A stretch of DNA of 64,000 nucleotides from Nemertoderma westbladi (lineage: Eukaryota > Animalia > Xenacoelomorpha). Both the position numbers and the translations under genes were made by a program. The stretch's first letter is position 1; each line of letters begins with the position of its first letter. The notes below the pieces were generated by a model. It made no database searches, had not been told where the DNA came from, and worked only from the letters and a program-made list of their open reading frames with translations. The stretch spans positions 1 to 64,000 of the forward strand of contig JAUCBJ010000448.1 of NCBI GenBank assembly GCA_032718475.1. Reading direction: 5' to 3'. Below are positions 38,643 through 64,000 of the stretch, in pieces.

Positions 38643-38647
38643 ATTAT

Positions 38648-42172: not shown

Positions 42173-42564
42173 CAATTTAATATTTCAGAAGAAGTAATAC
42201 GATTAATTATTATTAAAGAATGATTTATATTAATATCTTACTGCATATAATTTATCATGTATATCATTAATTCATTATCATACATTATCAATATCAATAT
42301 CAGTACCGTACCTACCTGCCATTCTATTTTTAACCCACTTAGAACCACCCACAATGAATGTTTATAATATTATAAATTATTATTTGCCAGTAAAACACAG
42401 ACAGGATTTAATTTGCCTTTAGCTAAGACATGGGAAGTAGCCTAACGCACGTGCACAGAGTTCGTTCAACTAATGTGGTTCTAAGAAATTTTCCATGTGA
42501 AAGCTCTCACCTTTTGAACTCTTACTCGTTCTCTCACACGGCCAGCATGTCTACCTCGTCACCC

Positions 42565-42610
42565 ATTGGATGATAGCAGGAAGAGGTGTACAGGTGGCTT
42601 CTATATAAGC
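42565..42610 (+). promoter_or_regulatory. Candidate Pol II promoter (inverted CCAAT + TATA) for the RepHel-like gene
   Basis: ATTGG at 42565 and TATATAA at 42602, upstream of an ATG exon that has its own splice acceptor, implying a non-coding first exon. Motif inference only. Confidence 0.35.
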
Positions 42611-43928
42611 AAGTTAGCAGGCAACAACTATGTGGAATTTCAACTGAAATACCGTTCGTTTCATTCTGTTCTTGCTAACTGAACTTAGTTTGCTACGTAC
42701 CGGTAGTTTTTTTTATTTAATTTTTATTGCTTGCATCCATACCAGCAGACCGATACTGTTTCTTGGTAGCCTCTAGCATTGAGTAGGCCTATAGCATATG
42801 TTATGGCATTTTATAATACGGTACCGGTATTTACTAGTACTGAAGGCCTACTTGTACTATGATTAATAGGCCTACTGTAATAATTTAATGCATACACTAC
42901 ACTACACTACCAACAGGACCAATTCCAATGTAGGCCTAGCTTTGGGAAGTACCCTACTGAACTATTACACTGTTACAGTACAGCAGTATACAGTATCAAT
43001 GCAGCAATGTCAAAATGCAAAGCTGTAGGCCTAGGCTTCCTGTACGCTGTACCTACCTAGGTTGCTATAATTTATCACTTTCTTTTTGAATGTGGAAGGG
43101 AAAAAGTGTTATTTTTTAGTGTACCGTAGTCCCACTTAGTTGCTTAGTGCTTGAATGGTTGAATTCAATTTATTCATTCAGGGCTTAAGCCAGCCAGCAG
43201 CCCTAATTCTGTAATAACCGGTACAATAGCCTACCGGTACCGGGTACTTTCTATGTTTATTATTTAGGCTTGATTGATTGCGATTGATTGATATTGATTG
43301 CGATTATTATTATTATTATTATTATTGGATATTATATTATTATTTATTTACGTGGTTGCGATAGCTGAAACTAACTCGAAGCTTTGGTGGATTGCCATCG
43401 ATTTTCTTGGCTTCTTCTTCCGGTTCTGTGGAAGCTATTGCGACTTAACTTTTTTATTGTTTTATTTTATCGCTGTGCGTCGTGGAACACTAAACGTTTG
43501 ACCGTTCATTTGCTTCATTCACCAGGTTAGTCAATAAATCCCAAACTGCCAACACAGGCCTATCTGTAACGGACAACGGCAGCGTAGCCCATAGTCAGCC
43601 CACAGTCAGATAGTAGTAGCATAGGCCTGGATATGAAGTACCGGTTGGCGAATCTTATTTTTCTGGTATAGGGCTTTAATATATTATTAAATAAATGAAT
43701 TGTAGTAGAATATAGTGTGCGCTTTCTCATTTTTTTCATTTCTGAACTACCGGTATTTATTGGTTCTACAATATCATTCATATATTATGTCTGTTATTGT
43801 TAAAAATTTGTATTGACATGTCCAAGTCTTTAACACTATTTATATTCACCATTTTAATATTACAGCTCAACTACCTTTTATATTAGCCTACTTGGTGGTC
43901 TCCCTTAATGTCTGTATTTTCTTTTAGA

Positions 43929-44114
43929 ATGGGTAAATCTAGAATACGAAAAAACGTGTGTTCGTACTGCCATGGCCAAGTACCTCCGACACGCCACACT
44001 AAGGCTACGTGCCGCGTTCGTAGGGAACACCGAGCGTTGGGGATCTTTGAGGATACCATTGAGGAGGGGATTGGGATGGAAGCTCGGATCCGGCTTAGCC
44101 TTCAACAGGAGCGG
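43929..44114 (+). CDS. Predicted first coding exon of the RepHel-like gene (62 aa, C-x2-C-x8-H-x4-C zinc knuckle)
   Basis: Acceptor ttttcttttag ending 43927, ATG at 43929, peptide CSYCHGQVPPTRHTKATC, canonical donor gtaagt at 44115 in phase 0. Confidence 0.65.
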
Positions 44115-44137
44115 GTAAGTTAACCGATATACCGATA

Positions 44138-44295
44138 ATTTGTATACTATTTGTACGCCCCCCCCCCCCCCCCAGCCGTGTCAATTTGTATTCTATTTGT
44201 ACACCCCCCCCCCCCCCAGCCGTGTCAATTTGTATTCTATTTGTACACCCCCCCCCCCCCCCCAGCCGTGTCAATTTGTATACTATTTGTACACC
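44138..44295. repeat. About 44-bp poly-C-containing repeat, about 3.5 copies
   Basis: ATTTGTATTCTATTTGTACA(C)nAGCCGTGTCA. Confidence 0.85.
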
Positions 44296-44304
44296 GCATA
44301 CATC

Positions 44305-47300
44305 GCGTAACATGCCGCGGTTGCAGTAATTTATTAAGTGTGTATAATAATTTATTAAGTGCGTAACATGCCGCGGTTGCAGTAATTTATTAAGTGCGTA
44401 TAATAATTTATTAAGTGCGTAACATGCCGCGGTTGCAGTAATTTATTAAGTGTGTATAATAATTTATTAAGTGCGTAACATGCCGCGGTTGCAGTAATTT
44501 ATTAAGTGCGTAAAATGCCGCGGTTGCAGTAATTTATTAAGTGTGTATAATAATTTATTAAGTGCGTAACATGCCGCGGTTGCAGTAATTTATTAAGTGT
44601 GTATAATAATTTATTAAGTGCGTAACATGCCGCGGTTGCAGTAATTTATTAAGTGCGTAAAATGCCGCGGTTGCAGTAATTTATTAAGTGTGTATAATAA
44701 TTTATTAAGTGCGTAACATGCCGCGGTTGCAGTAATTTATTAAGTGTGTATAATAATTTATTAAGTGCGTAACATGCCGCGGTTGCAGTAATTTATTAAG
44801 TGCGTAAAATGCCGCGGTTGCAGTAATTTATTAAGTGTGTATAATAATTTATTAAGTGCGTAACATGCCGCGGTTGCAGTAATTTATTAAGTGTGTATAA
44901 TAATTTATTAAGTGCGTAACATGCCGCGGTTGCAGTAATTTATTAAGTGTGTATAATAATTTATTAAGTGCGTAAAATGCCGCGGTTGCAGTAATTTATT
45001 AAGTGTGTATAATAATTTATTAAGTGCGTAACATGCCGCGGTTGCAGTAATTTATTAAGTGTGTATAATAATTTATTAAGTGCGTAACATGCCGCGGTTG
45101 CAGTAATTTATTAAGTGTGTATAATAATTTATTAAGTGCGTAACATGCCGCGGTTGCAGTAATTTATTAAGTGTGTATAATAATTTATTAAGTGCGTAAA
45201 ATGCCGCGGTTGCAGTAATTTATTAAGTGTGTATAATAATTTATTAAGTGCGTAACATGCCGCGGTTGCAGTAATTTATTAAGTGCGTAAAATGCCGCGG
45301 TTGCAGTAATTTATTAAGTGTGTATAATAATTTATTAAGTGCGTAACATGCCGTGGTTGTAGTAATTCATTAAGTGTGTATAATAATTCATTAAGTGCGT
45401 AACATGCCGCGGTTGCAGTAATTTATTAAGTGTGTATAATAATTTATTAAGTGCGTAACATGCCGCGGTTGCAGTAATTTATTAAGTGCGTAAAATGCCG
45501 CGGTTGCAGTAATTTATTAAGTGTGTATAATAATTTATTAAGTGCGTAACATGCCGCGGTTGCAGTAATTTATTAAGTGTGTATAATAATTTATTAAGTG
45601 CGTAACATGCCGCGGTTGCAGTAATTTATTAAGTGCGTAAAATGCCGCGGTTGCAGTAATTTATTAAGTGTGTATAATAATTTATTAAGTGCGTAACATG
45701 CCGCGGTTGCAGTAATTTATTAAGTGTGTATAATAATTTATTAAGTGCGTAACATGCCGTGGTTGTAGTAATTCATTAAGTGTGTATAATAATTCATTAA
45801 GTGCGTAACATGCCGCGGTTGCAGTAATTTATTAAGTGTGTATAATAATTTATTAAGTGCGTAACATGCCGCGGTTGCAGTAATTTATTAAGTGCGTAAA
45901 ATGCCGCGGTTGCAGTAATTTATTAAGTGTGTATAATAATTTATTAAGTGCGTAACATGCCGCGGTTGCAGTAATTTATTAAGTGTGTATAATAATTTAT
46001 TAAGTGCGTAACATGCCGCGGTTGCAGTAATTTATTAAGTGCGTAAAATGCCGCGGTTGCAGTAATTTATTAAGTGTGTATAATAATTTATTAAGTGCGT
46101 AACATGCCGCGGTTGCAGTAATTTATTAAGTGTGTATAATAATTTATTAAGTGCGTAACATGCCGCGGTTGCAGTAATTTATTAAGTGCGTAAAATGCCG
46201 CGGTTGCAGTAATTTATTAAGTGTGTATAATAATTTATTAAGTGCGTAACATGCCGCGGTTGCAGTAATTTATTAAGTGTGTATAATAATTTATTAAGTG
46301 CGTAACATGCCGCGGTTGCAGTAATTTATTAAGTGTGTATAATAATTTATTAAGTGCGTAACATGCCGCGGTTGCAGTAATTTATTAAGTGTGTATAATA
46401 ATTTATTAAGTGCGTAACATGCCGCGGTTGCAGTAATTTATTAAGTGTGTATAATAATTTATTAAGTGCGTAACATGCCGCGGTTGCAGTAATTTATTAA
46501 GTGCGTAAAATGCCGCGGTTGCAGTAATTTATTAAGTGTGTATAATAATTTATTAAGTGCGTAACATGCCGTGGTTGTAGTAATTCATTAAGTGTGTATA
46601 ATAATTCATTAAGTGCGTAACATGCCGCGGTTGCAGTAATTTATTAAGTGTGTATAATAATTTATTAAGTGCGTAACATGCCGCGGTTGCAGTAATTTAT
46701 TAAGTGCGTAAAATGCCGCGGTTGCAGTAATTTATTAAGTGTGTATAATAATTTATTAAGTGCGTAACATGCCGCGGTTGCAGTAATTTATTAAGTGTGT
46801 ATAATAATTTATTAAGTGCGTAACATGCCGCGGTTGCAGTAATTTATTAAGTGCGTAAAATGCCGCGGTTGCAGTAATTTATTAAGTGTGTATAATAATT
46901 TATTAAGTGCTGCGTAACATGCCGCGGTTGTAGTAATTCATTAAGTGTGTATAATAATTCATTAAGTGCGTAACATGCCGTGGTTGTAGTAATTCATTAA
47001 GTGCGTAACATGCCGCGGTTGTAGTAATTCATTAAGTGTGTATAATAATTCATTAAGTGCGTAACATGCCGTGGTTGTAGTAATTCATTAAGTGCGTAAC
47101 ATGCCGCGGTTGCAGTAATTTATTAAGTGTGTATAATAATTTATTAAGTGCGTAACATGCCGCGGTTGCAGTAATTTATTAAGTGTGTATAATAATTCAT
47201 TAAGTGCTTAACATGCCGCGGTTGTAGTAATTCATTAAGTGTGTATAATAATTCATTAAGTGCGTAACATGCCGCGGTTGTAGTAATTCATTAAGTGCGT

Positions 47301-50300
47301 AACATGCCGCGGTTGTAGTAATTCATTAAGTGTGTATAATAATTCATTAAGTGCTTAACATGCCGCAGTTGTAGTAATTCATTAAGTGTGTATAATAATT
47401 CATTAAGTGCGTAACATGCCGTGGTTGTAGTAATTCATTAAGTGCTTAACATGCCGTGGTTGTAGTAATTCATTAAGTGTGTATAATAATTCATTAAGTG
47501 CGTAACATGCCGCGGTTGCAGTAATTTATTAAGTGTGTATAATAATTTATTAAGTGCGTAACATGCCGCGGTTGCAGTAATTTATTAAGTGCGTAAAATG
47601 CCGCGGTTGCAGTAATTTATTAAGTGTGTATAATAATTTATTAAGTGCGTAACATGCCGCGGTTGCAGTAATTTATTAAGTGTGTATAATAATTTATTAA
47701 GTGCGTAACATGCCGCGGTTGCAGTAATTTATTAAGTGCGTATAATAATTTATTAAGTGCGTAACATGCCGCGGTTGCAGTAATTTATTAAGTGCGTAAA
47801 ATGCCGCGGTTGCAGTAATTTATTAAGTGTGTATAATAATTTATTAAGTGCGTAACATGCCGTGGTTGTAGTAATTCATTAAGTGTGTATAATAATTCAT
47901 TAAGTGCGTAACATGCCGCGGTTGCAGTAATTTATTAAGTGTGTATAATAATTTATTAAGTGCGTAACATGCCGCGGTTGCAGTAATTTATTAAGTGCGT
48001 AAAATGCCGCGGTTGCAGTAATTTATTAAGTGTGTATAATAATTTATTAAGTGCGTAACATGCCGCGGTTGCAGTAATTTATTAAGTGTGTATAATAATT
48101 TATTAAGTGCGTAACATGCCGCGGTTGCAGTAATTTATTAAGTGCGTAAAATGCCGCGGTTGCAGTAATTTATTAAGTGTGTATAATAATTTATTAAGTG
48201 CGTAACATGCCGCGGTTGTAGTAATTCATTAAGTGTGTATAATAATTCATTAAGTGCGTAACATGCCGTGGTTGTAGTAATTCATTAAGTGCGTAACATG
48301 CCGCGGTTGCAGTAATTTATTAAGTGTGTATAATAATTTATTAAGTGCGTAACATGCCGCGGTTGCAGTAATTTATTAAGTGTGTATAATAATTCATTAA
48401 GTGCTTAACATGCCGCGGTTGTAGTAATTCATTAAGTGTGTATAATAATTCATTAAGTGCGTAACATGCCGCGGTTGTAGTAATTCATTAAGTGCGTAAC
48501 ATGCCGCGGTTGTAGTAATTCATTAAGTGTGTATAATAATTCATTAAGTGCTTAACATGCCGCAGTTGTAGTAATTCATTAAGTGTGTATAATAATTCAT
48601 TAAGTGCGTAACATGCCGCGGTTGTAGTAATTCATTAAGTGCGTAACATGCCGCGGTTGTAGTAATTCATTAAGTGTGTATAATAATTCATTAAGTGCTT
48701 AACATGCCGCAGTTGTAGTAATTCATTAAGTGTGTATAATAATTCATTAAGTGCGTAACATGCCGTGGTTGTAGTAATTCATTAAGTGCTTAACATGCCG
48801 TGGTTGTAGTAATTCATTAAGTGTGTATAATAATTCATTAAGTGCGTAACATGCCGCGGTTGCAGTAATTTATTAAGTGTGTATAATAATTTATTAAGTG
48901 CGTAACATGCCGCGGTTGCAGTAATTTATTAAGTGCGTAAAATGCCGCGGTTGCAGTAATTTATTAAGTGTGTATAATAATTTATTAAGTGCGTAACATG
49001 CCGCGGTTGCAGTAATTTATTAAGTGTGTATAATAATTTATTAAGTGCGTAACATGCCGCGGTTGCAGTAATTTATTAAGTGCGTATAATAATTTATTAA
49101 GTGCGTAACATGCCGCGGTTGCAGTAATTTATTAAGTGCGTAAAATGCCGCGGTTGCAGTAATTTATTAAGTGTGTATAATAATTTATTAAGTGCGTAAC
49201 ATGCCGTGGTTGTAGTAATTCATTAAGTGTGTATAATAATTCATTAAGTGCGTAACATGCCGCGGTTGCAGTAATTTATTAAGTGTGTATAATAATTTAT
49301 TAAGTGCGTAACATGCCGCGGTTGCAGTAATTTATTAAGTGCGTAAAATGCCGCGGTTGCAGTAATTTATTAAGTGTGTATAATAATTTATTAAGTGCGT
49401 AACATGCCGCGGTTGCAGTAATTTATTAAGTGTGTATAATAATTTATTAAGTGCGTAACATGCCGCGGTTGCAGTAATTTATTAAGTGCGTAAAATGCCG
49501 CGGTTGCAGTAATTTATTAAGTGTGTATAATAATTTATTAAGTGCGTAACATGCCGCGGTTGTAGTAATTCATTAAGTGTGTATAATAATTCATTAAGTG
49601 CGTAACATGCCGTGGTTGTAGTAATTCATTAAGTGCGTAACATGCCGCGGTTGCAGTAATTTATTAAGTGTGTATAATAATTTATTAAGTGCGTAACATG
49701 CCGCGGTTGCAGTAATTTATTAAGTGTGTATAATAATTCATTAAGTGCTTAACATGCCGCGGTTGTAGTAATTCATTAAGTGCTTAACATACCGCGGTTG
49801 TAGTAATTCATTAAGTGTGTATAATAATTCATTAAGTGCGTAACATGATGCGGTTGTAGTAATTCATTAAGTGCTTAACATACCGCGGTTGTAGTAATTC
49901 ATTAAGTGTGTATAATAATTCATTAAGTGCGTAACATGCTGCGGTTGTAGTAATTCATTAAGTGTGTATAATAATTCATTAAGTGCGTAACATACCGCGG
50001 TTGTAGTAATTCATTAAGTGTGTATAATAATTTATTAAGTGCTTAACATACCGCGGTTGTAGTAATTCATTAAGTGTGTATAATAATTTATTAAGTGCTT
50101 AACATACCGCGGTTGTAGTAATTCATTAAGTGTGTATAATAATTTATTAAGTGCGTAACATACCGCGGTTGTAGTAATTCATTAAGTGTGTATAATAATT
50201 TAATAAGTGCTTAACATACCGCGGTTGTAGTAATTCATTAAGTGTGAATAATAATTTATTAAGTGCGTAACATACCGCGGTTGTAGTAATTCATTAAGTG

Positions 50301-51093
50301 TGTATAATAATTTATTAAGTGCTTAACATACCGCGGTTGTAGTAATTCATTAAGTGTGTATAATAATTTATTAAGTGCTTAACATACCGCGGTTGTAGTA
50401 ATTCATTAAGTGTGTATAATAATTTATTAAGTGCTTAACATACCGCGGTTGTAGTAATTCATTAAGTGTGTATAATAATTTAATAAGTGCTTAACATGCT
50501 GCGGTTGTAGTAATTCATTAAGTGTGTATAATAATTTATTAAGTGCGTAACATACCGCGGTTGTAGTAATTCATTAAGTGTGTATAATAATTTATTAAGT
50601 GCGTAACATACCGTGGTTGTAGTAATTCATTAACTGTGTATAATAATTTAATAAGTGCTTAACATACCGCGGTTGTAGTAATTCATTAAGTGTGTATAAT
50701 AATTTAATAAGTGCTTAACATGCTGCGGTTGTAGTAATTCATTAAGTGTGTATAATAATTTATTAAGTGCGTAACATACCGCGGTTGTAGTAATTCATTA
50801 AGTGTGAATAATAATTCATTAAGTGCGTAACATGCCGCGGTTGTAGTAATTCATTAAGTGTGTATAATAATTCATTAAGTGCGTAACATGCTGCGGTTGT
50901 AGTAATTCATTAAGTGCTTAACATACCGCGGTTGTAGTAATTCATTAAGTGTGAATAATAATTCATTAAGTGCTTAACATGTCGCGGTTGTAGTAATTCA
51001 TTAAGTGTGAATAATAATTCATTAAGTGCATAACATGCTGCGGTTGTAGTAATTAATTAAGTGTGTATAATAATTCATAAATTCATTAAGTGT
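44305..51093. repeat. 6.8-kb array of the same 35/21-bp minisatellite, inside predicted intron 44115-51153
   Basis: Same monomers and orientation as 36694-38040, with homogenised variant blocks. Confidence 0.97.
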
Positions 51094-51153
51094 GAATTTA
51101 CTTATGTATGTACATTGTACATATAGGTTATTATTGATAAATATTGTATATAG

Positions 51154-51468
51154 GAGAGAGTTGAGGATTCCAATAGGGCTGAAGCTTCAACTCAACCCAT
51201 GGATACTTCTGATGGAGGAGCCCCTAACCCTCCCATCTTCTCTCCTGCTGCTGGTGACGAGACATCCACCTCTGCCCCGTCCTCAGATCCTCTAACCTCG
51301 GAATGTGGGGAAGAATCCTTTTCTGCCCACAACTTTCTCTCCACGTTTACATTGCAACCTGGAGAGCAAACCCCTCGCTTTACCCCCAAGCGTCCAATGC
51401 CTTACGTGATTCCATCATGTGTCATTGGCGGACCAAGGGGCGTAATCCGAGGGGCACGTCCTGTAACA
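51154..51468 (+). CDS. Predicted exon 2 of the RepHel-like gene (105 aa, Ser/Pro-rich linker)
   Basis: tag acceptor at 51153, open frame including ORF 51199, donor gtgagt at 51469. Phase 0 at both ends, compatible with exons 1 and 3. Confidence 0.7.
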
Positions 51469-51757
51469 GTGAGTTTAATGTATTTCTATATATATAATAA
51501 ATATACAGTTGTCATATAGTTCCTATGTGTATCAGTGTATTAAATATAATCTAGACCAACTATATAGTTGTTTTTTAGATGTCATTGTGTTGTACTTGTA
51601 TCTATACGTTGTATAGGTTGTCTACGGTTTTAATATTTATGTACCATTCATATGGAATGTTGATTAATTAGTTTATAGTTTTAAATTAAAGTCAGATTTG
51701 TACATAGATTTAAATAATTGTACTTCATTTTATATGGAATTTTTTTATTTTTTTTAG

Positions 51758-54700
51758 CCAACAGGATTCAACCTTCAAGGTTCAATTAGAACCCCCTGGA
51801 TTAGACCGGTAGTTTCTGGACCTCGGTTTACTGGTTATGATACTGCAAGGTCATCTGCAGTACCCGCCACTGGAGGTGCACCACAACCCACTGCATCATC
51901 TGAAACGCCCAGATGCTCATCCTCAGAAAGGGTTTCATCAATGGCTATTCAGACTAATGCAGCAGCTTGGTTCCGTGTTGAAGCTGAAAAGCGCAATATG
52001 GAATTGGTGTGGGTACGTGGCGATGGAAATTGCATGTTTAATGCATTCCGTATTTCATCACAAGGAATTACTGATTCCCCTCTGTTGATGAGAAAGAAAG
52101 TACGGGACTATCTCCGGGAGCATTCTCAGGAATTTTCTGATAAGTATGCTCCTGGGCCATATGAACTGCCTTTTGCGGAATTTGTCGCACAGCTAATAAA
52201 CCAATCTCATGACGTGGTATTTGGTAACTCCATTGTCCTTGAAGCCCTCGGTAGAATTTACTCACGTTTATTCGTGGTATTGACTACTGAGTTTGGCAAT
52301 CATATGGAACAAGTTGGGGTGCCAGGAATGCCCAACGTCCTGATTGGCCATGATTATGTTGGCGCGCATTATTATGCTTTTAGACCGTTGCCATTATGTG
52401 GAGTTACCCGTGTGGAACCACCTTCTTCGAGTGCAAGTGCAATACCGCTTCCTCACCCACAACTGTCCACAACCACTGCATCAACTTCACCTCATGTTGA
52501 ACAACAGCAACCACCTCCACCTCAACCTTCAACATCCCAACCCCAAGCAGGAGAATTTGGGGAATGTGATGATAGAATGGATTGGTCTGCATTTGAAGAG
52601 GACGAGGAGACCCTTCGATATGACTCAATCCGTATCGATCATTTGAATCTTCCCGATATTGACCTGAGTGAGGAAAGTGATGAGGATATGGTTGAAGAGG
52701 TGGATATTGTTGTTGAAGACAATGATGGTGAAGTTGCAATGGAAGTTGATGGTGACTATCAACATGATAGTGTGGTCATTCTAGAGAATGAGGAGGTATG
52801 TGTGAATTGCAGGCGCATTAAAACTCCAGAACATCCATTAGAGTTACGCATGAGTAGGAAAGCAGTTAATCGGGAATATGGTTCGCTCCGCCATGCCAAT
52901 GAGATGGATTATGTGCTTTGTAAGGAGTGCTCCATCTATTTGGGAGGAAAGGGTTCTCATGGTCCTTGGGCCAGTGGCTGGCCATCCTTTATATATTCAG
53001 GTCTAGTAAATAGGGTTGCTGGTTTGGGTAATCCGACCAACTTACTTGATTTACTGCCAGAAGAGTTAAGGGACAGCTGGAGGTTTGTCATTGATGAATT
53101 TGATCTTCGTCCTACGAAGACTGTTCTCAAGGACTTTACCAAGGATCTTCGTGAGTACCATGAAGTGATGGAGGAAATCGACTTAGGAAAGCTTACCAGT
53201 TTAATGAACAATGGTTGCTTTCCTAGTGTTGTGTGTGGTATGGGATGTGTCCAGTACATGGAAGCATGCCGACCCATTCCATTCAATCACTTCTTGGCGA
53301 GCCGTTTCCCAATTAAACAGGTATTTCATGCTAAGCCAGATCAAGTACGGTCCTTCAGGAGTGATTGGCCATATACATTCAAGGAACTCGATTGGGAAGC
53401 GATGGGTGGTACGATTGTAACTAGTAAAGGCTTGGGTATCTTGGTATGCAAGAAGCACAAGTCAACTAACAAGTTAGTCTTCCACCTTCCAAACAACCCT
53501 GTATCTCCTGATGACCCTATTATTTACCCAGACATGTTTGCCATGGCCACTTTAACTCCTCATATAGTGCGTGGCCCACGTGATGGTGTTTATTCGAACA
53601 GTTTCCATACTGTAAAGGCTGAAGGAAATTCCTATGGGTTGTCGTCGTGCTATATCGAGCTTGATCCTGTGCACCAATACTTCCCTGAAGAAGCCCTCAG
53701 GGATGGCAAGTTGTACCACGCTGAATCTCTCACATTAGAATGTCGTCCTGATGTGAACGAGTTCATGCGACAGGGACGACATCGCCATCTTGATCCTGGA
53801 TATATTGAACATGTCACTGGCTATTATAAACCACCGGAACAACACTTCATTCAGGAAGCCTTGGAAGGAGCTACATACATGGATGTGTATGACTGCTACA
53901 GGCTTCATGAACGAATTTTGAATAAGGGAACGGAAGAGAACGAAAGAGATAGATTTTCTTTCAAGGATATCTGTCTCGATGAAATGCCAATTATGCAACC
54001 TTGTAATGCTATCGGCAGAAGGTCATGGTGTATTCATAATGAGACAGGTTTCTCTACTGGCCTTAGACTACAGATGCTATCATTTTCAGTGATGCATTGC
54101 CGAGTGATGCATAGTATCCTCCAGGCTTTGGAAGTTAAGAGTGATGCCCAAAAGGCACTTCTTAAATATCTGAAGTTTGGGGTGTATGCTGCGTATTGCA
54201 CAGCACAGCAGAGACGTATGTATGCCTTTCATGTTCTTGAGCGATTAGAGGAGGACATTGATCTTGGTTTACATCGTCAAACTGTTGACAGCCAAGTAGC
54301 TCTAATGCTGGAAGAACTTATTCCAGGTTGTATTGAGGTTAATAGTATTGATGACATAATCAATGATGACATTTATGTCCTTAGCAAGCCACATAATACT
54401 GGCAGAGGGGAGCCATTCCCTTTGCAGTTACGTGGTTATTACCTTCACGCTGCTTTGACGGTTAGCTTTGATAAGTTGTCAGGAATCTTTCGATGGAGTG
54501 ATGATCATTCATTCCAGCACTTCTTACATGAGGGAAATAAACTGGTGCCACCTATGGTAGATGATCCTGAGGGTGCCATTAAGAAGGCGCAACTTTACAT
54601 CTATGTAAAGAAGGGCTGCTATAATCTTACTGAAATACAGCGTGATCTGTTCATTGCAAATTTCGCTGATCAAAGTAAAGTTAAGTGTTCCCAGCATAAA

Positions 54701-57700
54701 ACATTACTCCGTAGAGAAAACTTTAGGGAGGATAATGGATTATGTGTTAAGTCGCACTCTGGTACTAGTGTGAGTAAGAATATCCGCTGGCGGTGCCCTT
54801 ATGGGTTTCCTGAAAATCAGTGTGAGGTTGGTTTGTGTCTTAGTCACTGGAAGGATGTGATTGTTCAACCTGAGATTGAGATACTTATTGGTCCTTGCAA
54901 TGACCAGAGTAATGTTCAAATTCAACACTCGAGAGGTCTACAAGTAGGTGGCGATCAGCGCCGTCCTGATGATGACTCAGATGATGAGGAAGTGGAGGAT
55001 CCTCTAGATAGGGCAAGCAGAATTTTTGGTGGTGATTTTCAAACTGATGATTCTGCTATTCCTATGGAAGACTATGTGGTGGGGATAAACGATGGTGACT
55101 ATGATGACGATGAGTATCCATTAGTAGGATTGGCAACTGGTGCCACTATTCCTATTTATGATGTTGGACGGGTCTCTTCTCATTGTCTTTTGAACAATCA
55201 GAATGGCCTCCAGATACTTAAGCGTACACGTGGTTATGGGGGTAAAGGTAGCGCCTATGTAAATAAGGTGCTGTATCATATTGCCTCCCGTTCACCTGGC
55301 ATCCATTTGCCCCTTATGTACATTGAAGGATTACTGTTTCCAAGAAACTTCTGGTACATGAAGGCTAATGGAAGCGTTGTTGGTGCTATTCCATCATTCT
55401 TGTATGGCCTTCCATTCAATGCTCCTAATTATGGTATTGCATCACTACGGGATCATATGCATATCAGGACATTTGATGAACGGCTGTTTTCGTCAAAGGA
55501 TCCAGCCTATCTTCATTACTGGTTTGATGTGTACATGAACTCAGTATTGAACCATACTTCTGCTCAGCTTGTTCTCCGTAAGGGATTTGAACAAGTCTGT
55601 GAGGGGGAGGAAAGGCTTCAATCTGGTGCTTCAGATACCATTTTACGTTTCGACGAAATGGAATCACGGCGTCGTGTGAGGGAGCTTTGTGCACTTTTGC
55701 GGTATGGTTACTGGAATTATTTTTTCACAGCCACCTGTAATAATGCGCATACTCCAGGTGTTTCACCAGTTTATGATGCAGTTCGGAGGCTCTATGAGCA
55801 TCTGGATGGCAGAAAGCTGGCGTTAGCTATGGAGAAGTATACTGCTTTATTCACACGCTGTTGGAATCGTTTCGCAGATCACCTTCACCATTGGATTGAA
55901 CGAGGTATTGATAAACCCTTTGGTGATGTGAAGTATATATGGACACGAATGGAGGCTCAAGATCAGGGATCCCCTGTAGCAAATATGCTACATATCCATG
56001 GTGGAATAACCCTCCACCCGGAGTCTATAGAGGAGACACGCGATAGGATTTGCTGTCGAACCACTGACTTGTTATCTCCTTTCTTTGGGACAGATCGTCC
56101 TCAATTGGTTGAGCAAGGAATCATTGAGGATGACGAATGGTCTCAGCTGTTCAGCCTAAAGCACCTGCAAACGCATAACTGCGACCGAGCTGGCAGTCGG
56201 TGCCATAAACGTATTGACGAGGCTGGAAATACGTTTTGCCGAATGCCTCGTCATGTTGCTAGTATGGATAATGGCTTTAAACCTAAGACTGACATGTACA
56301 CCGATGATGCCCTCAATGATCTGGAATCTATAGACCTTCTTCAAAGAAATGATGATGGGTCTCTTAGATTAGATGATCAGGGTAATCGATTGGCACATAT
56401 AAATCTTATTGGAGGTCGCCATACTTATTCTGCTAGTGGTTTTGAGTTTGCGGTACCAACGATACCTAGGTATTGGGTGGCTTTGAGATCATCCACCAAT
56501 GTACAGGCTTGTGATACAAAGTTTTGCACTTCGTATTGTGCCAAGTACTTGGGGGGTCCTGAAGAACGGCGTGCAGTTAAAATTGACGGACAAAAGAATC
56601 TGACCTCAGTGAAGGTCACTCATACTGAACAGGAAGGAATAAAGATATCTGGGGTTAATTATCTCAAGAAGCAGGCAGATATGAAGGATAGCAATAAGAG
56701 TGGCATCAAAGCTCGGGAGATGGGATATCCAGAGATTCTTCATAATCTTCTGGGCTTCCCATACATCAGATCAAATGTGGACTTTGTCCATGTTTCCACT
56801 CTGAGTCCTGAGTACCGGCACGGCATTGTGAAACAACAAACAAGAGATGTTCATTTAGGAGTTCTTGAAGCTGTTCAAACACGATTAATGATGCCAGGTT
56901 TACCAGAATGGCGTAACTTCACAAATAATCAAATTCTTACTGTCAATGAGATGGGTAAGAGTGATTATATTGCTGATGGTTTAACTTCTTTCAGCATAAG
57001 AGCTCCTGAGCTTCGAATCTTTGACAAACTTGACGTATTCTACGAATGCTTTGCTCTTTCAGCAAGGGTCAAGAAAAGTCAATGTGATTTGGAGCTGAAG
57101 AAGTGCCATTGGATAGATGGTAATAACCGTCTATGGAAGCTACGACCTTCTGGCATTCCGATAGCTGTAGAATTTCTAACAAGAAAGGCTACAACTGGTA
57201 ATGTTATCGCTAGGCAGTTATTGGATGAGGTATTCTTACCTATATCCAGAGGAGAACTTCATAAGATCTTTGTGAGTTCGCTTGAGAAACATAAGAAACC
57301 TGCCATAGTTGTGTTCTCAAGTGTTAGCCCATTGCAAATGGGACGTTTCTTGTTTCACCTTGCCTATTCCCTTGGAAGTTTTGAGACTGAACTAGATTTA
57401 TTAGATGTTCAGGATATTCGTACAACTTTCAAGAAGGCAAGTCTAATATCAGATGATGTTATTGTGCCGGAATGTGAAGTCACTGACTTATTGAAATCCT
57501 ATGTCATGAGAGACTTGCATTATCAATCTATTGGTAATGCACAATTCCAACGTTATCTACATCTTGCAATCACTGGTATTCGGCAATTCTTTGCTGGTGA
57601 TGGCTTGTTATATGAGGCTATTCCTCTATTTTATGAGGATAGTATTCGTGTGCAAGCTACGAAAGAAGTAGAAAGGTTAGAGGAGGTCAGCCATGTCAAT

Positions 57701-59806
57701 CTTATGGAGGCTTTATACGGGCAGGAGGGATTGATATTGCCAGATATGGCTGATTTAGCACGTGCTACACGGGCCCATCCTCTAGAGTGGCAACCTTTAC
57801 TGGATGTGGCTAGTGGCCAAACAGGGGAATCTGTTTCTGAGCAAAAGAACATGCTACAAGTATTGGTGAATGCTGTTGATGCTTATTGTCATCCATCATC
57901 AACATTTGTTAAATCCCCTTGGTTGGTTGGCGCACCTGGTGTTGGCAAGACTCATGTTATGCTAATGGGACTGGCATATAGCCTCTCGCGTGGTTTAAAT
58001 GTGCAGCTAACTGCTATTACCAGCGAGAGAGCTAGGTTGCTTGGTGGTGTACATCTACATCTACTGATGCCATTCAGTGTTGGAAGAGGTTCACGCTCAT
58101 TAACTAGCACTTGTTTAGCCCAGGATTGCTTATTAGCACTGGCAAAGAATCCATCCAAACTTGCATATCTCCAAAGATTGAATGTTATCTTCTTTGAGGA
58201 ATGTGGAATGCTCTCATGTGAGTATCTTGCAGCTATTGACTTGGTATTACGCCGAATCTGTAACACACAGAGACCCTTCGGTGGCAAACTCTTCATTGGG
58301 TGTGGAGATCATCTACAATTAGAACCTGTGGATGGTAGGGTTGTATGGCTCAGCACACATTTTTTAACAACATTCACTGTTTGTGTGGCGAGACATTATG
58401 TTCGTAGTGCTAATGACGAGGAATTGCAACACGTCATTAATATTATGCGAAGCACCAACCCAAGTCCAAACCTTATTGATGAAGTGATTGCTATATTGAA
58501 GCGGCGGTGTAACTTTGTTGATAGTTGGGATGAAGTCCCTGATGATGTCTTGAAGGTTGTTGGCACTAGAGCTGCAGAGCAAGAGGTACTACAGAAATAC
58601 CTAAACCTTCATAGGAATGAGCCTGGGACAGTTGTAATAAGCGGCCATGATGAGGTTAGTTCTACTGCTTCTAATACTAGCTCATGGAAGCCTACAAACA
58701 CTCCCAGCATTATCAGTTCAATCACGAGATCTTGTCGGGAACCCATGGAGTTGGTTTTATTTCTAAACCAGATCCTTAGGTTCACATACAATCAGCTTTC
58801 TGGACAACCTCAATTTTCCAATGGTCAATTGTCTGTTGTTAAAGCAGTACCAGCTGATTGCGATGATTTCTTGGAATTGGCTGTTGTTCCAAAAGGTTGT
58901 CGTCAAATTGAAGAGGTTGAGAGTACCTGGCCTGTGGCTAAAGTTAAGCAACGGCCTTGTGCTGCCACTTCTACTGGTTTTGGTAGCAATCTTCTTGGCA
59001 GACGGGTGCAGTTTCCGGTGCGCTACTTTGGGGCAGGAACTGTCCATGGTATACAAGGACAAGATGCCCCAAGCTTAGCAACACAGATCTCCTCTGATGC
59101 CAAGAGTAAGTATAGGCTATGGCTAAAAACCCAGATAACAACCTTAATATCGAGGGTACGGTATCTCAACACATTTACATTTGTTGGCAAGATGGATGAG
59201 GCCTTTAATTGTATCCGCATCTTGCTTAGCATGAAGTCGCCCAATCAAGATTATATAGACCAGTTATTAAGACGTCTTAATATTCTTATTGGGCCCCCTC
59301 AGGTACCTCTCATGTTTGAATATCACCCCTTCCGACCCTTCTTTAGGGAAATCCCTGGTGCACAAATTGGATTTGTGTATATGCTTATCAGCATTCGGTT
59401 GCCTAATGTGAATTACACTGGTCAAACTGAGAACCTGAAAATGAGACTTCAGAGTCACCAAAATAAAACAGGTTCGGAGTTTACAAAGAATCCTGTTTTA
59501 CATCCTTGGTCTCTGTATGCTTTCATATACGGGTTTCCTGGTGACGCCAAGAGTAAACTCAATACAGAAAACCGTAAGGGATTTGAGACTAGGTGGCATC
59601 ATATGGCAGAGACTGGACCTGCAGGTGGGGATATGACCAAAGGACGAGACCAGGTGTATGCTATGGGTGTTGAGATTGTGCGTCAATATAATGCTGAGTT
59701 TTATGTTGATGCAGATGGAAATGCAAAGCGTTTTGAACTAACAATGGTTAAATGCCAAGAGTTAATTCAAGATAATTTGCAAGCCGAGATCCCAATGTCT
59801 CAATAG
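51758..59806 (+). CDS. Exon 3 of RepHel-like polyprotein: OTU + Cys-rich + HUH Rep + Pif1-like helicase + GIY-YIG (contains the 2621-aa ORF 51941-59806)
   Basis: OTU VRGDGNC...HYY (about 52012-52380). CVNC and CKEC pairs (about 52800, 52918). Rep motif I YFFTATCN (55718), II HIH (55991), III YCAKY (56534). Walker A GAPGVGKT (57929), Walker B FFEECG (about 58190), PFGGK...GDHLQLEPV, QFPV...TVHGIQG, LISRV. C-terminal FVY...YTG...RLQSH...PW...GF...FE. Acceptor ttttttag at 51757 is open in frame to the ATG at 51941 (183 nt). Confidence 0.93.
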   Translation, partial: PTGFNLQGSIRTPWIRPVVSGPRFTGYDTARSSAVPATGGAPQPTASSETPRCSSSERVSSMAIQTNAAAWFRVEAEKRNMELVWVRGDGNCMFNAFRISSQGITDSPLLMRKKVRDYLREHSQEFSDKYAPGPYELPFAEFVAQLINQSHDVVFGNSIVLEALGRIYSRLFVVLTTEFGNHMEQVGVPGMPNVLIGHDYVGAHYYAFRPLPLCGVTRVEPPSSSASAIPLPHPQLSTTTASTSPHVEQQQPPPPQPSTSQPQAGEFGECDDRMDWSAFEEDEETLRYDSIRIDHLNLPDIDLSEESDEDMVEEVDIVVEDNDGEVAMEVDGDYQHDSVVILENEEVCVNCRRIKTPEHPLELRMSRKAVNREYGSLRHANEMDYVLCKECSIYLGGKGSHGPWASGWPSFIYSGLVNRVAGLGNPTNLLDLLPEELRDSWRFVIDEFDLRPTKTVLKDFTKDLREYHEVMEEIDLGKLTSLMNNGCFPSVVCGMGCVQYMEACRPIPFNHFLASRFPIKQVFHAKPDQVRSFRSDWPYTFKELDWEAMGGTIVTSKGLGILVCKKHKSTNKLVFHLPNNPVSPDDPIIYPDMFAMATLTPHIVRGPRDGVYSNSFHTVKAEGNSYGLSSCYIELDPVHQYFPEEALRDGKLYHAESLTLECRPDVNEFMRQGRHRHLDPGYIEHVTGYYKPPEQHFIQEALEGATYMDVYDCYRLHERILNKGTEENERDRFSFKDICLDEMPIMQPCNAIGRRSWCIHNETGFSTGLRLQMLSFSVMHCRVMHSILQALEVKSDAQKALLKYLKFGVYAAYCTAQQRRMYAFHVLERLEEDIDLGLHRQTVDSQVALMLEELIPGCIEVNSIDDIINDDIYVLSKPHNTGRGEPFPLQLRGYYLHAALTVSFDKLSGIFRWSDDHSFQHFLHEGNKLVPPMVDDPEGAIKKAQLYIYVKKGCYNLTEIQRDLFIANFADQSKVKCSQHKTLLRRENFREDNGLCVKSHSGTSVSKNIRWRCPYGFPENQCEVGLCLSHWKDVIVQPEIEILIGPCNDQSNVQIQHSRGLQVGGDQRRPDDDSDDEEVEDPLDRASRIFGGDFQTDDSAIPMEDYVVGINDGDYDDDEYPLVGLATGATIPIYDVGRVSSHCLLNNQNGLQILKRTRGYGGKGSAYVNKVLYHIASRSPGIHLPLMYIEGLLFPRNFWYMKANGSVVGAIPSFLYGLPFNAPNYGIASLRDHMHIRTFDERLFSSKDPAYLHYWFDVYMNSVLNHTSAQLVLRKGFEQVCEGEERLQSGASDTILRFDEMESRRRVRELCALLRYGYWNYFFTATCNNAHTPGVSPVYDAVRRLYEHLDGRKLALAMEKYTALFTRCWNRFADHLHHWIERGIDKPFGDVKYIWTRMEAQDQGSPVANMLHIHGGITLHPESIEETRDRICCRTTDLLSPFFGTDRPQLVEQGIIEDDEWSQLFSLKHLQTHNCDRAGSRCHKRIDEAGNTFCRMPRHVASMDNGFKPKTDMYTDDALNDLESIDLLQRNDDGSLRLDDQGNRLAHINLIGGRHTYSASGFEFAVPTIPRYWVALRSSTNVQACDTKFCTSYCAKYLGGPEERRAVKIDGQKNLTSVKVTHTEQEGIKISGVNYLKKQADMKDSNKSGIKAREMGYPEILHNLLGFPYIRSNVDFVHVSTLSPEYRHGIVKQQTRDVHLGVLEAVQTRLMMPGLPEWRNFTNNQILTVNEMGKSDYIADGLTSFSIRAPELRIFDKLDVFYECFALSARVKKSQCDLELKKCHWIDGNNRLWKLRPSGIPIAVEFLTRKATTGNVIARQLLDEVFLPISRGELHKIFVSSLEKHKKPAIVVFSSVSPLQMGRFLFHLAYSLGSFETELDLLDVQDIRTTFKKASLISDDVIVPECEVTDLLKSYVMRDLHYQSIGNAQFQRYLHLAITGIRQFFAGDGLLYEAIPLFYEDSIRVQATKEVERLEEVSHVNLMEALYGQEGLILPDMADLARATRAHPLEWQPLLDVASGQTGESVSEQKNMLQVLVNAVDAYCHPSSTFVKSPWLVGAPGVGKTHVMLMGLAYSLSRGLNVQLTAITSERARLLGGVHLHLLMPFSVGRGSRSLTSTCLAQDCLLALAKNPSKLAYLQRLNVIFFEECGMLSCEYLAAIDLVLRRICNTQRPFGGKLFIGCGDHLQLEPVDGRVVWLSTHFLTTFTVCVARHYVRSANDEELQHVINIMRSTNPSPNLIDEVIAILKRRCNFVDSWDEVPDDVLKVVGTRAAEQEVLQKYLNLHRNEPGTVVISGHDEVSSTASNTSSWKPTNTPSIISSITRSCREPMELVLFLNQILRFTYNQLSGQPQFSNGQLSVVKAVPADCDDFLELAVVPKGCRQIEEVESTWPVAKVKQRPCAATSTGFGSNLLGRRVQFPVRYFGAGTVHGIQGQDAPSLATQISSDAKSKYRLWLKTQITTLISRVRYLNTFTFVGKMDEAFNCIRILLSMKSPNQDYIDQLLRRLNILIGPPQVPLMFEYHPFRPFFREIPGAQIGFVYMLISIRLPNVNYTGQTENLKMRLQSHQNKTGSEFTKNPVLHPWSLYAFIYGFPGDAKSKLNTENRKGFETRWHHMAETGPAGGDMTKGRDQVYAMGVEIVRQYNAEFYVDADGNAKRFELTMVKCQELIQDNLQAEIPMSQ

Positions 59807-59984
59807 AGTACTGTGTCTTGTTTCTTCTTCGTCTTCTAATGTCCGTGTCCTGTGTACCTATGCTTATGCAGCTATGCCAAACTTGCAACTTTCCAAACTT
59901 ACCTTCCCATCTTGTTCAGGCTTAAAATTAAGAATTCTGCCTTATAAATGCAGGCTTTATCAAGGTTATTATATTTTTATATAC

Positions 59985-60545
59985 TTTTTCTTTTGTATTT
60001 TGTCTTTTTACTTTTATCTTTTTCTTTGACTTTCGTCTTTTCACTTTTGTCTTTTAACTTCCTTATAAATACTGGCTTTATCAAGGTTATTTATATTTTT
60101 ATATTTTTTTGTATTTTGTCTTTTTACTTTTATCTTTTTCTTTGACTTTCGTCTTTTGACTTTTGTCTTTTCACTTTTGTCTTTTAACTTTAGTCTTTTG
60201 ACTTTTGTCTTTTGTTGTTTGACTTTTGTCTTATAACTTTGGTCATTTGTCTTTTGACTTTTGTTTTTTGACTTTTGTGATTTGACTTTTGTCTTTTGAC
60301 TTCAGTCATTTTACTTTTGTTTTTTTATTTTTGTCTTTTGACTTCAGTCATTTTACTTTTGTCGTTTTACTTTTGTCTTGTTATTTTTGTCTTTTGACTT
60401 GTTATTTTTCTTTTGTCTTTTTACTTTTTACTTTTGTCTTTTTTGTTTTTGATTATTGTATTATATTGTATTATTGTATTTTTACTTTTGTTTTTTTACT
60501 TTTTCTTATATATTTTTACATTTTTAGTTTTTATTTTTGTTTTTT
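59985..60545. repeat. Degenerate TTTTGAC/TTTTGTC heptamer tract
   Basis: Direct reading of the sequence. Confidence 0.85.
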
Positions 60546-61157
60546 CTTATGCCTTGATAATTAAAATAGTATTTTTCAATTCTCCAATGGTGGGTCGCTT
60601 GAGGAGAGTTGTTGTTCTATGTTTATTGTTTATGCCTGCATAATTAAGGCAGGAAAGAATTAAAATCTCATGATAAGAATACTGGTATAATAAGATCTAC
60701 TTTCTTTGAGAATTCGTAAGAACAATTACTCTAGAGGTGAGCATTTTAGTTGGCCCGGGTGTTGTTCATTACATTTTCTCATTGTTAAGAATTTAGGAAA
60801 GAATTAAAATCTCATGATAAGAATACTGGTATAATAAGATCTTACAATAAGAATGTGTTTCTGTCAATATGTCTGCACCATCATCTCTCTTACCATGCTA
60901 ACTCTCTCTCTAATCCAGGGTGGTCAGGAACCAAACCCGTCTTTTTAAGGCGGGTGGCTGGAATTTGGTCAATTCTAGCCAAACCATGTTTCTCCTTGAT
61001 GACACAGTGTTCTTGCCGTATTATCAATTTTGTGTTTTAAAGACATTCTATTATCTTTTTAACATAATTGTAAATATGGTTAACCGAATATTGACAAATA
61101 TTTTTGTCAATACCCATGGCGTTCATATTTTTACCTAACAGACATTTGGTTGATATA

Positions 61158-61402
61158 CTTTTGTCTTTTGACTTTTGTCTTTTGACTTTTTTCTTTTGAC
61201 TCTTGTTATTTCACTTTTGCCTTTTGACTTTTGTCTTTTGACTTTAGTCTTTTGACTTTTGACTTTTGTCGTTTGACTTTTGTCTTATGACTTTTGTCAT
61301 TTGTCGTTTGACTTTTGTCTTTTGACTTTTGTCCATTGACATTTGTGATTTGACTTTTGTCTTTTGATTTTTGTCTTTTGACTTTTGTCTTTTGACTTTT
61401 GT
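61158..61402. repeat. TTTTGAC/TTTTGTC heptamer tract
   Basis: Direct reading of the sequence. Confidence 0.9.
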
Positions 61403-62094
61403 TAAATATCTTTACACCATAATTTGTTGGTATGTGTAATTTAATGGACACATGGCCTACTTGGAAAGGACACTGAGGAGAATACAATAAGTAGGAAATG
61501 CACTATGCTTTGTGATACTTACTATTTTACTATCATATCGTCAATCTCTGATAGAAGGTGGTAGTAGAAATGTAAATTAATATTGCAAGACATAAGAGTC
61601 CAAAGTCTCTGTAAAGCATGATGGCTACTTCTTCTTCATAATCATATCATTATTGTGATTATTATAATTATATATAGATATATGTTGTTTTGAAGTTATC
61701 GAAGATGGTAAGTTACTAAATTTACTAGTAATGGTAAGTTTGTTATATAATTATAGTATGTATGTATGTGATTAATTATGATTATTGAATTATTGTTAGA
61801 AGAGAAACTTTTTATTAACTTTTTGATTAATTTATCTCTATTATATCTTTTATTTAATTTTTATTTATAGACATTTCTTCATAATTAGTCAATTTATAGT
61901 TTTAAACATGTGGATTATTTAAATGATTCTGGAAATAGTTGTCATCTATCAACTCTTTGTTTACATATTTTATTCTGGAGAATGCAATTTCTAGGTAAGT
62001 TGTTAATGGGGGTTGTTATAAAGTAATGTGGAAGAGTGGAAGGGTTTAATATGGAAGATTAACGAGCCTACAAAATTCTCCCATTCTTATAAAG

Positions 62095-62232
62095 TAATGA
62101 GGGTGGTGGGCGGGGTTGGTGGACAATAAATATTATAAAGTTATTAGGGTGGTGGGCGGGGTTGGAGGACAACAAATATTATAATTTAATGAGGGTGGTG
62201 GGTGGGGTTGGAGGACAATAAATATTGTAAAG
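62095..62232 (+). repeat. Three G-rich about 45-bp repeats
   Basis: GAGGGTGGTGGGCGGGGTTGGAGGACAATAAATATT. A related single copy lies in family A at about 2968, 7165 and 32814. Confidence 0.8.
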
Positions 62233-63225
62233 TAATGGAAAGGCATTCCAGATGTTTTATGATTATTATCTTACTCATTATCATTTACTTCATTACCATT
62301 CTATATTATATACCTATACTCTAAATCTCTAAAATCACTGTAAATCTAAGATTAGATAAAATCACTGTAAATCTAAGATTAGAAGCATTTGCTTTACTTC
62401 TTGTTTACTTGCAAGGTTATTTTAATATATAATGCCTCAGTATAATATCAAATGGGGTGAAACCCGGATTAACTGGAAAATGTTTCATTATTATTACAGT
62501 AGTGTTTAAGTAAGTAGTATTAATAAAGGATAAGTTAATTATTAATACATATCTTCAACTTTGTTTGTATGGTTGTATTAATAATAATGTTACTTTATAA
62601 ATTGGGTCTAATACCATCTTCTTTACTCCAAAATTATGATAACTTATAAGAGGATGGGGTTCGTGATTACTTGTTATTATTATAAAGTTCGGCCACTCGT
62701 CCCACTCGGCTTTAAAGAGTCCTGCTTACCATACATATGGGCCACACATCGACAGGGTAATGTCCGTAGGACCACTCAACCAACCCGGCCATGCAAACGC
62801 AGCCATTCCAATGCACCTACATGAACTGGTTTCAGAATTGTTAAGATTTTTGAGAGAGTAGAGCCCAACATGCACTTTAAATTAAAGAGTAATACAAAAT
62901 AATTATATCTACCCATTAGAATATATAGATAACAATCATACGTAACATAAATCACTAAATATTAATCCTTCAATCATTGTCATAACTTCTTGTAGTTTTT
63001 TTTACGCAGTTGAATTACTATTATGTTACTATATCGATCGGGGCCAAACCCGCATCACGCGATACAAGCCGAACCCAATTCGTGCCATAAATTCTACTCG
63101 TCAGCTCCCACCCACAGCTATTATTTGATTGATAGAGGGTTATGATATTTTTTTTGCTTTGGGGTTGGGAATTAAGTGCCCCCACTCGGCTATAGAGAGT
63201 GCCTCTCGGTACGTTCACTGGATGT

Positions 63226-64000
63226 ATGGGCCGTTCACCGACAGGTATAATGTCCGTAGGACTACTTACATCACTCTGGCCGCGATCCCGTCGACGGCGA
63301 CCTAGCTGAACTGGCTTCGGAAAATTAGAGATAGCCTTTTTGAGAGAATAGAAGGTTTTCTCGAGAACTAGGCAAAAACCACCAATAAAATGTTCCTAGA
63401 CCCCCCCCTAAAATTTAATTACAAGACTTTTAGTGAAACTCGGCGACTCGTGAATCTCGACGGTTCTCCGGCTAGGGCCAATTTGAGGCGAAAAAACTGG
63501 TTCCTTGGCAACTGCCGTTGCTATGCAAAAATCTCAAGAACCGCTAACGCTACGGACTCGGGACCGACGCCAAACTGTAGGCAGCATATGGGTTTACCTT
63601 CACAATTTAGTTTTTGGAGCGAACCGATCATGATCTTGGCCGCGATCAGCAAAGATCAGTTTTGATCAGCAATCGGACACTCAAGGCTTGCTCCAATCGA
63701 AAAACTTAACATTACAAAAAGATTCAGCGACCCCACATTAGTTATGATTCCCGTTAAAAAAATTTAAAAAAAGTGAATTCTTCCTGGTCAAAACGCAAGA
63801 TCCGGATCGCGCAAAGATCGGACTTTGTAAAATCGTAACTAAGCATTTTGGATATAAACAATTACTGTAAGAAACGTTCAGAACACCGCCCTGAGTCAAT
63901 TAAAAAAAAAATTGGCTCGATCGGACAACCGGTTCTCGAGATATGCTTCCTGATCGAAAAAGATCGTGTTTTTTGGTTTTTTCCAATTTTCTCGAAAACT
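63226..64000 (+). mobile_element. Unit 14, family A-type start (truncated by window end)
   Basis: Follows junction 63218-63225. The start of its body matches unit 2. Confidence 0.75.

Follow-up and report, generated by a model that had tools for sequence, protein, structure and literature searches.

Helitron-like elements (HLEs) are sorted by the domain that follows the helicase of their transposase. There is none in Helitrons and Helitron2; in Helentrons, which often carry OTU as well, there is an apurinic/apyrimidinic (AP) endonuclease, and cutting of the target or of the second strand is its proposed job. To our knowledge, HLE1 proteins have no nuclease after the helicase. The subject of this report is a gene of the xenacoelomorph Nemertoderma westbladi, on a stretch of 64,000 nucleotides (positions 1 to 64,000 of contig JAUCBJ010000448.1, assembly GCA_032718475.1; hereafter the window). 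It encodes a transposase with Rep and helicase domains (RepHel) followed by a GIY-YIG nuclease domain of the SLX1/HIGLE type.

By the published rules, Helitrons have TC...CTRR ends and an A|T target, and Helentrons have a T|T target, subterminal inverted repeats and a 3′ palindrome (PMC4067079). Two signatures have been given for the Helentron Rep, (F/Y)xR before motif 2 and a serine between G and P before HxH (Thomas et al., 2014, PMC4067079). A GIY-YIG domain is on record in one HLE2 family, HelenSM92 of Sphagnum magellanicum, where it was described as a captured domain in a single moss family (PMC11417382, Fig. S8). The listed copies of HelenSM92 are 16–19 kb long; TT targets and short inverted repeats at the termini are reported for the family (PMC11417382). 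In a full-text literature search for Helitrons with GIY-YIG or SLX1 and for Helentrons with GIY-YIG, Sphagnum was the only relevant case found. Penelope-like retroelements combine a reverse transcriptase with a C-terminal GIY-YIG endonuclease used for target cutting (PMC6431247).

The gene in the window resembles those of Helentrons (HLE2) in uniting Rep, a Pif1-like helicase, an endonuclease fused at the helicase C-terminus and a probable N-terminal OTU domain in one giant open reading frame (ORF), and tandem repeats are present inside the element, as in Helentrons. It differs in that the nuclease is a GIY-YIG of SLX1 type. HelenSM92, compared here by its published description, shares the union of RepHel with GIY-YIG and is also long, but its TT targets and short terminal inverted repeats were not seen at the window element. 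Penelope-like elements likewise carry GIY-YIG at the C-terminus of their main enzyme, but they are retroelements and have neither Rep nor helicase. The sequence-only reading, an earlier inspection of this DNA, had taken the protein for a separate Helitron-like lineage, apart from Helentron clades already known to have such an architecture. This is weakened, as the GIY-YIG family of HLE2 in Sphagnum is in print (PMC11417382). The locus is a little-described variant and not a new kind of element. We read it, with a probability of about 0.6, as an intact gene for the transposase of a Helitron-like transposon present in many copies, one of a large and little-described family, in which the SLX1-type nuclease would make an extra cut.

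Layout of the transposase

The gene and the domains of its product are as follows.

51199-51468, + strand: predicted first exon, 90 amino acids from ATG, in frame up to a GTGAGT donor at 51469
51469-51757, + strand: predicted intron, GT...AG, AT-rich, 289 bp, read from the sequence
51758-59806, + strand: main transposase frame, open for 2682 codons before the stop codon; its first ATG lies at 51941
52016-52309, + strand: probable OTU cysteine protease domain, amino acids 26-123, GDGNC motif
52778-53935, + strand: family-specific N-terminal domain, amino acids ~280-665, conserved in relatives by local phmmer
54686-54838, + strand: Cys/His module, likely a zinc finger (C916, H919, C935, C952, C961, C966)
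55703-56575, + strand: HUH Rep nuclease domain (FFTATCN motif 1, E1338/Q1340, H1351/H1353, Y1532-x3-Y1536)
57839-59155, + strand: Pif1-like superfamily 1 helicase (Walker A GAPGVGKT, Walker B FFEE)
59354-59695, + strand: SLX1/HIGLE-type GIY-YIG nuclease domain (Y2480, Y2492, R2502, H2506, E2549)

A protein of 2621 amino acids is predicted from the ATG at 51941, and the frame 51758-59806 (+) has no internal stop. The sequence-only reading had reported an uninterrupted ORF with OTU, HUH Rep and Pif1-like motifs, and this was borne out. The nuclease motifs that it quoted lie where it had placed them: GFVYML at 59369, NYTGQT at 59411, RLQSH at 59444, HPWSL at 59501 and GFETRW at 59579. Further motifs are GDGNC (OTU) at 52019; FFTATCN at 55721, HIHGG at 55991 and SYCAKY at 56531; and GAPGVGKT at 57929 and IFFEEC at 58187 in the helicase. 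A chance ORF was ruled out by the 8 kb of open frame and the many homologues. The window sequence looks eukaryotic. To judge from the letters of the DNA, the gene probably has a 90-residue first exon and a 289-bp intron, with a plausible splice acceptor at 51758, just before which lies a T-rich tract ending in AG. No Pfam family matched the predicted first exon.

Sequence profiles and a predicted fold confirmed the C-terminus as a GIY-YIG domain of the SLX1/HIGLE type, as the earlier reading had claimed from motifs. Pfam GIY-YIG matched residues 2477-2536 with E 9e-6 (26.4 bits, cut-off 22.6). When the C-terminal 201 residues were compared with the PDB there were six matches at E<=10, of which the top five were all SLX1 (best 4xlg, E 3.5e-4). 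Searched with a family profile, the PDB gave five SLX1 sequences with E values from 1e-9 to 3e-8; 1ywl, at 7e-3, was the sole other GIY-YIG match. The SLX1 active-site residues align with Y2480, Y2492, R2502, H2506 and E2549, the last corresponding to position 79 of 4xlg, which is Q in that chain.

Structure prediction had been put forward as a check on this domain, and the model folded as GIY-YIG. An AlphaFold2 model of the C-terminus made from a 42-row alignment had a predicted local distance difference test score (pLDDT) of 85.4, with the beta-beta-alpha-beta-alpha core above 90; a single-sequence fold reached only pLDDT 37. In a fold search of the model with VIA-align against 48,161 PDB chains, the best matches were At-HIGLE (Z 11.9, root-mean-square deviation 2.9 over 111 residues, 25% identity) and Slx1 (6seh, Z 11.6, root-mean-square deviation 2.1 over 105 residues; 7cq2, Z 10.9). 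The next match beyond HIGLE and Slx1 was at Z 7.4, with UvrC at 4.4 and T4 EndoII at 4.3. The domain thus shares the nuclease fold and catalytic residues of SLX1 and At-HIGLE (Z 10.9-11.9, 23-25% identity), but it is fused to a transposase and has no C-terminal RING/PHD finger; the stretch behind it is about 60 residues long, holds one Cys and is modelled as helices and a small sheet. An Atlas look-up placed the C-terminus with a GIY-YIG cluster at 0.89, which is a lead only, being under 0.9. The AP endonuclease family (Exo_endo_phos) had no Pfam match in the window protein at E<=1 and was absent from 18/18 full-length relatives, so that the earlier statement that GIY-YIG stands in place of the Helentron AP endonuclease holds.

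The features of a HUH Rep nuclease are present as FFTATCN, H1351-I-H1353 and Y1532-CAK-Y1536. Across 40 aligned full-length members of the family, the residues E1338, Q1340, H1351, H1353 and Y1532 never vary, and the YxxKY motif is conserved as well. Pfam Helitron_like_N is above its cut-off in the relative P0002 (33.6 bits) and in 7 of the 18 full-length relatives, with 10 at E<=0.01. The window protein was assigned a Rep domain because relatives pass the Pfam cut-off and the Rep residues are invariant in the family.

The helicase was matched by Pfam PIF1 above its cut-off (residues 1967-2130, E 4e-9), and the family profile found Pif1 at E 4e-27 and the Helraiser helicase at E 3e-25 in the PDB. 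Walker A and E2087 are invariant in the 40 members. A Replitron, with a HUH Rep and no helicase, was ruled out by the Pif1-like helicase in the same ORF. The window protein shares with Helraiser (PDB 7lcc), an HLE1 protein, motif 1, HxH and YxxKY of Rep, a Cys/His module ahead of Rep and a helicase of Pif1 type. At E<=0.01 the family profile matched Helraiser in the helicase only and not in Rep; a third, weak stretch appeared at E<=10. With respect to the Helentron signatures, the family has [FW]xR just before the ExQ motif (W-T-R in the window), but the G-S-P position differs, being GN[LK][PS]H in the family and PVANMLH in the window.

It had been suggested that atypical core motifs mark this protein as a lineage of its own, and this did not hold. 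The family consensus around the histidines, E[FY]Q...GN[LK][PS]H[IV]H, is near the Helitron motif. In the window motif, EAQDQGSPVANMLHIH, the E, the Q and the two H are retained, A replaces F/Y, and there is one additional residue before HIH, an oddity of this copy. The clade of the window protein has EE in Walker B and the more distant half of the family has the usual DE, with the second E invariant; the EE form is specific to a subclade. Since the consensus is near that of Helitrons and DE is found in the distant half, the atypical motifs do not define the lineage.

Relatives with the same layout

An exhaustive HMMER search with residues 1422-2621 as query found 2506 relatives, counted as cluster representatives, at the E<=1e-3 level, and 335 of them reach E<=1e-30. 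The family counts given here rest on the best 150 of the 2506, all of which belong to the GIY-YIG family and are 26-42% identical to the query; P0002, for example, has 30% identity to the window protein over 1772 aligned positions. The C-terminal nuclease domain was found in 112/150 by single-sequence search and in 124/150 by hidden Markov model (HMM), and most of those without it are fragments that do not extend past the helicase. Pfam matches in the 18 full-length relatives were distributed as follows.

GIY-YIG: 17 at E<=0.01, of which 14 pass the cut-off
PIF1: 17
OTU: 4, placed after the nuclease domain in P0032
Peptidase_C48: 1, C-terminal to the nuclease domain
AP endonuclease, E<=0.01: 0

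The catalytic set of the nuclease (the YIG tyrosine, Gly, Arg, His and Glu) is intact in 92/125 domains, that of the window protein included, and the first Tyr of the domain is present in 108/113. Intact domains are scattered throughout a tree of 40 members, so the fusion is ancestral to the family. In a subclade near the window protein (P0002, P0006, P0024, P0027, P0035 and P0038) catalytic residues have been lost. Together with about 25 others, these relatives keep a recognizable GIY-YIG fold (HMM E down to 4e-21). The losses fall on the catalytic Tyr, Arg, His or Glu.

As for the N-terminal half, the OTU assignment was made because the stretch matches OTUD3 (E 0.002) and OTUD5 (E 0.005) in the PDB and has the GDGNC motif. 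The sequence-only reading had recognized no domain in the roughly 1000 residues between OTU and Rep. This remains true in that no Pfam family matched there, and the Atlas gave no useful lead for the N-terminal domain, but the region is not featureless. Residues ~280-665 were matched in 42/150 relatives by local phmmer, and the six Cys/His residues between 916 and 966 are invariant in the 40 full-length members; the stretch from OTU to Rep is therefore a conserved part of the family, which offers a conserved N-terminal domain of ~390 amino acids without an assigned fold.

Proteases are also found at the other end. In P0061 a Ulp1 Peptidase_C48 lies past the nuclease (E 2.5e-10), and in P0032 there is a weak OTU past the nuclease. 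Since the protease is not N-terminal in these two, protease add-ons were gained more than once.

Some members are labelled "predicted GIY-YIG superfamily endonuclease" in their source records, and P0043 has five copies of identical length on different long contigs. Word-based protein searches were nearly empty (1/5344 candidates, 0/254 and 0/7993 scored), and related loci were confirmed in 0 of 378 pattern matches in metagenome contigs and 0 of 46 in viral contigs. Taken together, the protein comparisons confirm a large, deep and ancient family with this layout, which has been little described.

Mobility and the proposed role of the nuclease

Two features bear on whether the gene belongs to a mobile element.

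36553-62099, + strand: insertion of ~25.5 kb that holds the gene, delimited by paralogous empty sites
62026-62091, + strand: 3′-terminal ~65 bp, common to a far more abundant repeat

Empty sites were available because the insertion lies within one member of a repeat family of which the window has several more. In the flanks, 1-36552 and 62100-64000, copies of this family lie for example at 1651-4997, 5850-8422 and 31497-34847, at 82-92% identity. Three paralogous copies of the flanking repeat lack the insertion and read GGAGCGCC(A)|AGGGTGGTGGG, where the bar marks the junction, at 2965|2968, 7162|7165 and 32811|32813. With the insertion in place, the sequence is ...GGAGCGCCC|TTATCTAAATAG... 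on the left and ...TTATAAAGTAATG|AGGGTGGTGG on the right. Comparison of empty and occupied sites revealed no target-site duplication, within 1-2 nt, as in canonical Helitrons (HLE1). The empty form at 62100 is also present in one contig of DNA run X5. The right end of the insertion is known to within 62086-62099, and 36553-62099 is possibly the whole element, perhaps with nested material.

The gene occurs once in the 64-kb window, and hundreds of short contigs from three DNA runs of the same organism match it at 90-99% identity. Among ~690 coding variants in all, 18 of the 33 listed are synonymous, compared with 22% expected by chance, an excess that fits copies diverged under selection on the protein. 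The 3′-terminal segment is present at much higher copy number: summed contig depth in the three runs is ~8,000-15,000 at 62026-62091 and tens to ~1,350 in other bins, the segment exceeding the element body some tens of times in depth. Loose contig ends lie before 62026 and behind 62086-62091, and the foreign sequence before 62026 is the same in all three runs. The segment is likely the right end of the element, also used by abundant non-autonomous relatives.

By analogy with Helraiser, Rep would nick one strand at the left end and become covalently linked through a tyrosine, the helicase would unwind 5′ to 3′, and the cut at the right end would fall to the second tyrosine. The tethered GIY-YIG domain would nick duplex or branched DNA at the target, or the second strand, and so expose single-stranded DNA for Rep-mediated strand transfer. 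Such a nick is proposed because AP endonuclease and GIY-YIG, which are unrelated, hold the same position in related transposases, and because Penelope-like retroelements cut their target with GIY-YIG.

Several observations weigh against this account. Two of the Pfam matches in the window protein are below their cut-offs (OTU, 20.7 bits and 23.3; Helitron_like_N, 17.4 and 28.9), and the Rep motif of this copy differs from that of its own family. The element ends, TTATCTAAAT... and ...TTATAAAGTAATG, lack the 5′-TC...CTRR-3′ of canonical Helitrons, and the target, GCGCC(A)|AGGG in this one insertion, is neither A|T nor T|T. Neither subterminal inverted repeats nor a 3′ palindrome of Helentron type was found at this single insertion: there is no inverted match of at least 12 nt between 38000-51200 and 59806-62400, nor an inverted repeat of at least 60 nt anywhere in 36-64 kb, and the last 100 nt and first 108 nt of the one copy fold no better than shuffles (z -0.4). 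Ends and target fit neither the Helitron nor the Helentron rule, an observation that comes from one insertion in which other elements may be nested. About 30 relatives, several of the closest among them, have lost catalytic residues of the nuclease, which may be dispensable, or the degenerate copies may be dead. SLX1 depends on SLX4 and acts preferentially on branched DNA; its SLX4-binding RING finger is missing from the window protein.

The main rival account is that the domain acts as SLX1 proper, resolving flaps, forks and Holliday-junction-like intermediates at the donor or integration site and leaving the intact target un-nicked. The nearest solved relatives in both sequence and fold, Slx1 and HIGLE, are structure-specific nucleases, and a strand-peeling helicase would yield forked substrates beside a tethered nuclease. 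The missing RING finger, with only one Cys in the ~60 residues past the domain, speaks against it, and the fold attests kinship, not substrate. The flap resolution and junction-specific integration put forward in the sequence-only reading would follow from likeness to SLX1 only. We consider SLX1-like resolution rather unlikely.

That the GIY-YIG domain is, in line with the HELIANO paper's account of Sphagnum, a captured passenger, kept as a fold and not needed for movement, seems improbable. HLEs do capture many domains (PMC11417382), about 30 of the 124 relatives with the domain are degenerate in their catalytic residues, and the other add-ons vary, as seen in P0061 and P0032. But a nuclease found at the same place in 124/150 relatives at 26-42% identity, with catalysis intact in 92/125 across the whole tree, points to long purifying selection. 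Descent from such a transposase as a domesticated host gene is highly improbable. One relative is indeed annotated as a single "uncharacterized protein LOC120334012" in Styela clava, a tunicate, and the window holds one copy only. Against this, there are many diverged copies in the three DNA runs, and the locus lies inside an insertion absent from paralogous sites and is flanked by satellites and the high-copy terminal segment.

SLX1-type GIY-YIG is a third solution after the helicase, conserved in well over 100 deeply diverged proteins and represented in print, as far as our search goes, by a single captured domain. That two unrelated nucleases hold the same position argues for a genuine requirement of these transposons for a second DNA cut. 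The role of the Helentron endonuclease, long open, becomes testable through a catalytic domain that is small and well understood. Enzymologists gain from the family a compact fusion of helicase and nuclease, and transposon annotation gains a marker that would improve it; the window copy, being intact and multi-copy and having an empty site, is a good candidate for a transposition assay. A broader view is possible, though doubtful: RepHel-GIY-YIG may be a third major eukaryotic rolling-circle lineage beside Helitrons and Helentron/Helitron2, with an ancient SLX1-type fusion, its own N-terminal domain and its own rules for ends and targets, ranging from protists to tunicates and largely missed by annotation.

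Repeats and minor features of the insertion

The tandem repeats of the insertion are the following.

44305-51078, + strand: compound satellite of 35-bp and 21-bp units (127 x 35 bp, 97 x 21 bp), adjoining the gene upstream
36688-38039: second block of the compound satellite, with ~6 kb of other sequence between the blocks
59984-60507 and 61157-61402, + strand: two T-rich 14-bp arrays, unit ACTTTTGTCTTTTG, downstream of the stop codon

The insertion is thus made up of the compound satellite in its two blocks, ~6 kb of other material, the gene and the two 14-bp arrays. The 35-bp satellite unit is TAATTYATTAAGTGCGTAACATGCCGCGGTTGYAG, and the 21-bp unit has the same first 14 bp; long and short units follow each other in irregular order, with strong GC skew. 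Contig joints 51172->61161 and 51172->61350 are possible deletion derivatives, each with 23 letters on one side, and were not used.

At the right junction, 62087-62237 holds 3.3 copies of a 46-bp unit in which the final 13 bp of the insertion (TTATAAAGTAATG) are joined to the G-rich flank (AGGGTGGTGGGCGGGG...). Empty paralogues have only two looser G-rich copies. This 46-bp repeat may be what the sequence-only reading meant by junction arrays.

Within the insertion, the GDSL-lipase matches of a 208-aa ORF at 39398-40021 (- strand) are weak and miss the cut-offs (E 8e-4 and 1e-3), and a 163-aa ORF beside it matched no family. A long imperfect (CCACACG/GCCACACGCCAC)n microsatellite, 53% GC and with extreme GC skew, occupies 40760-42170 and accounts for three overlapping mechanical ORFs there.

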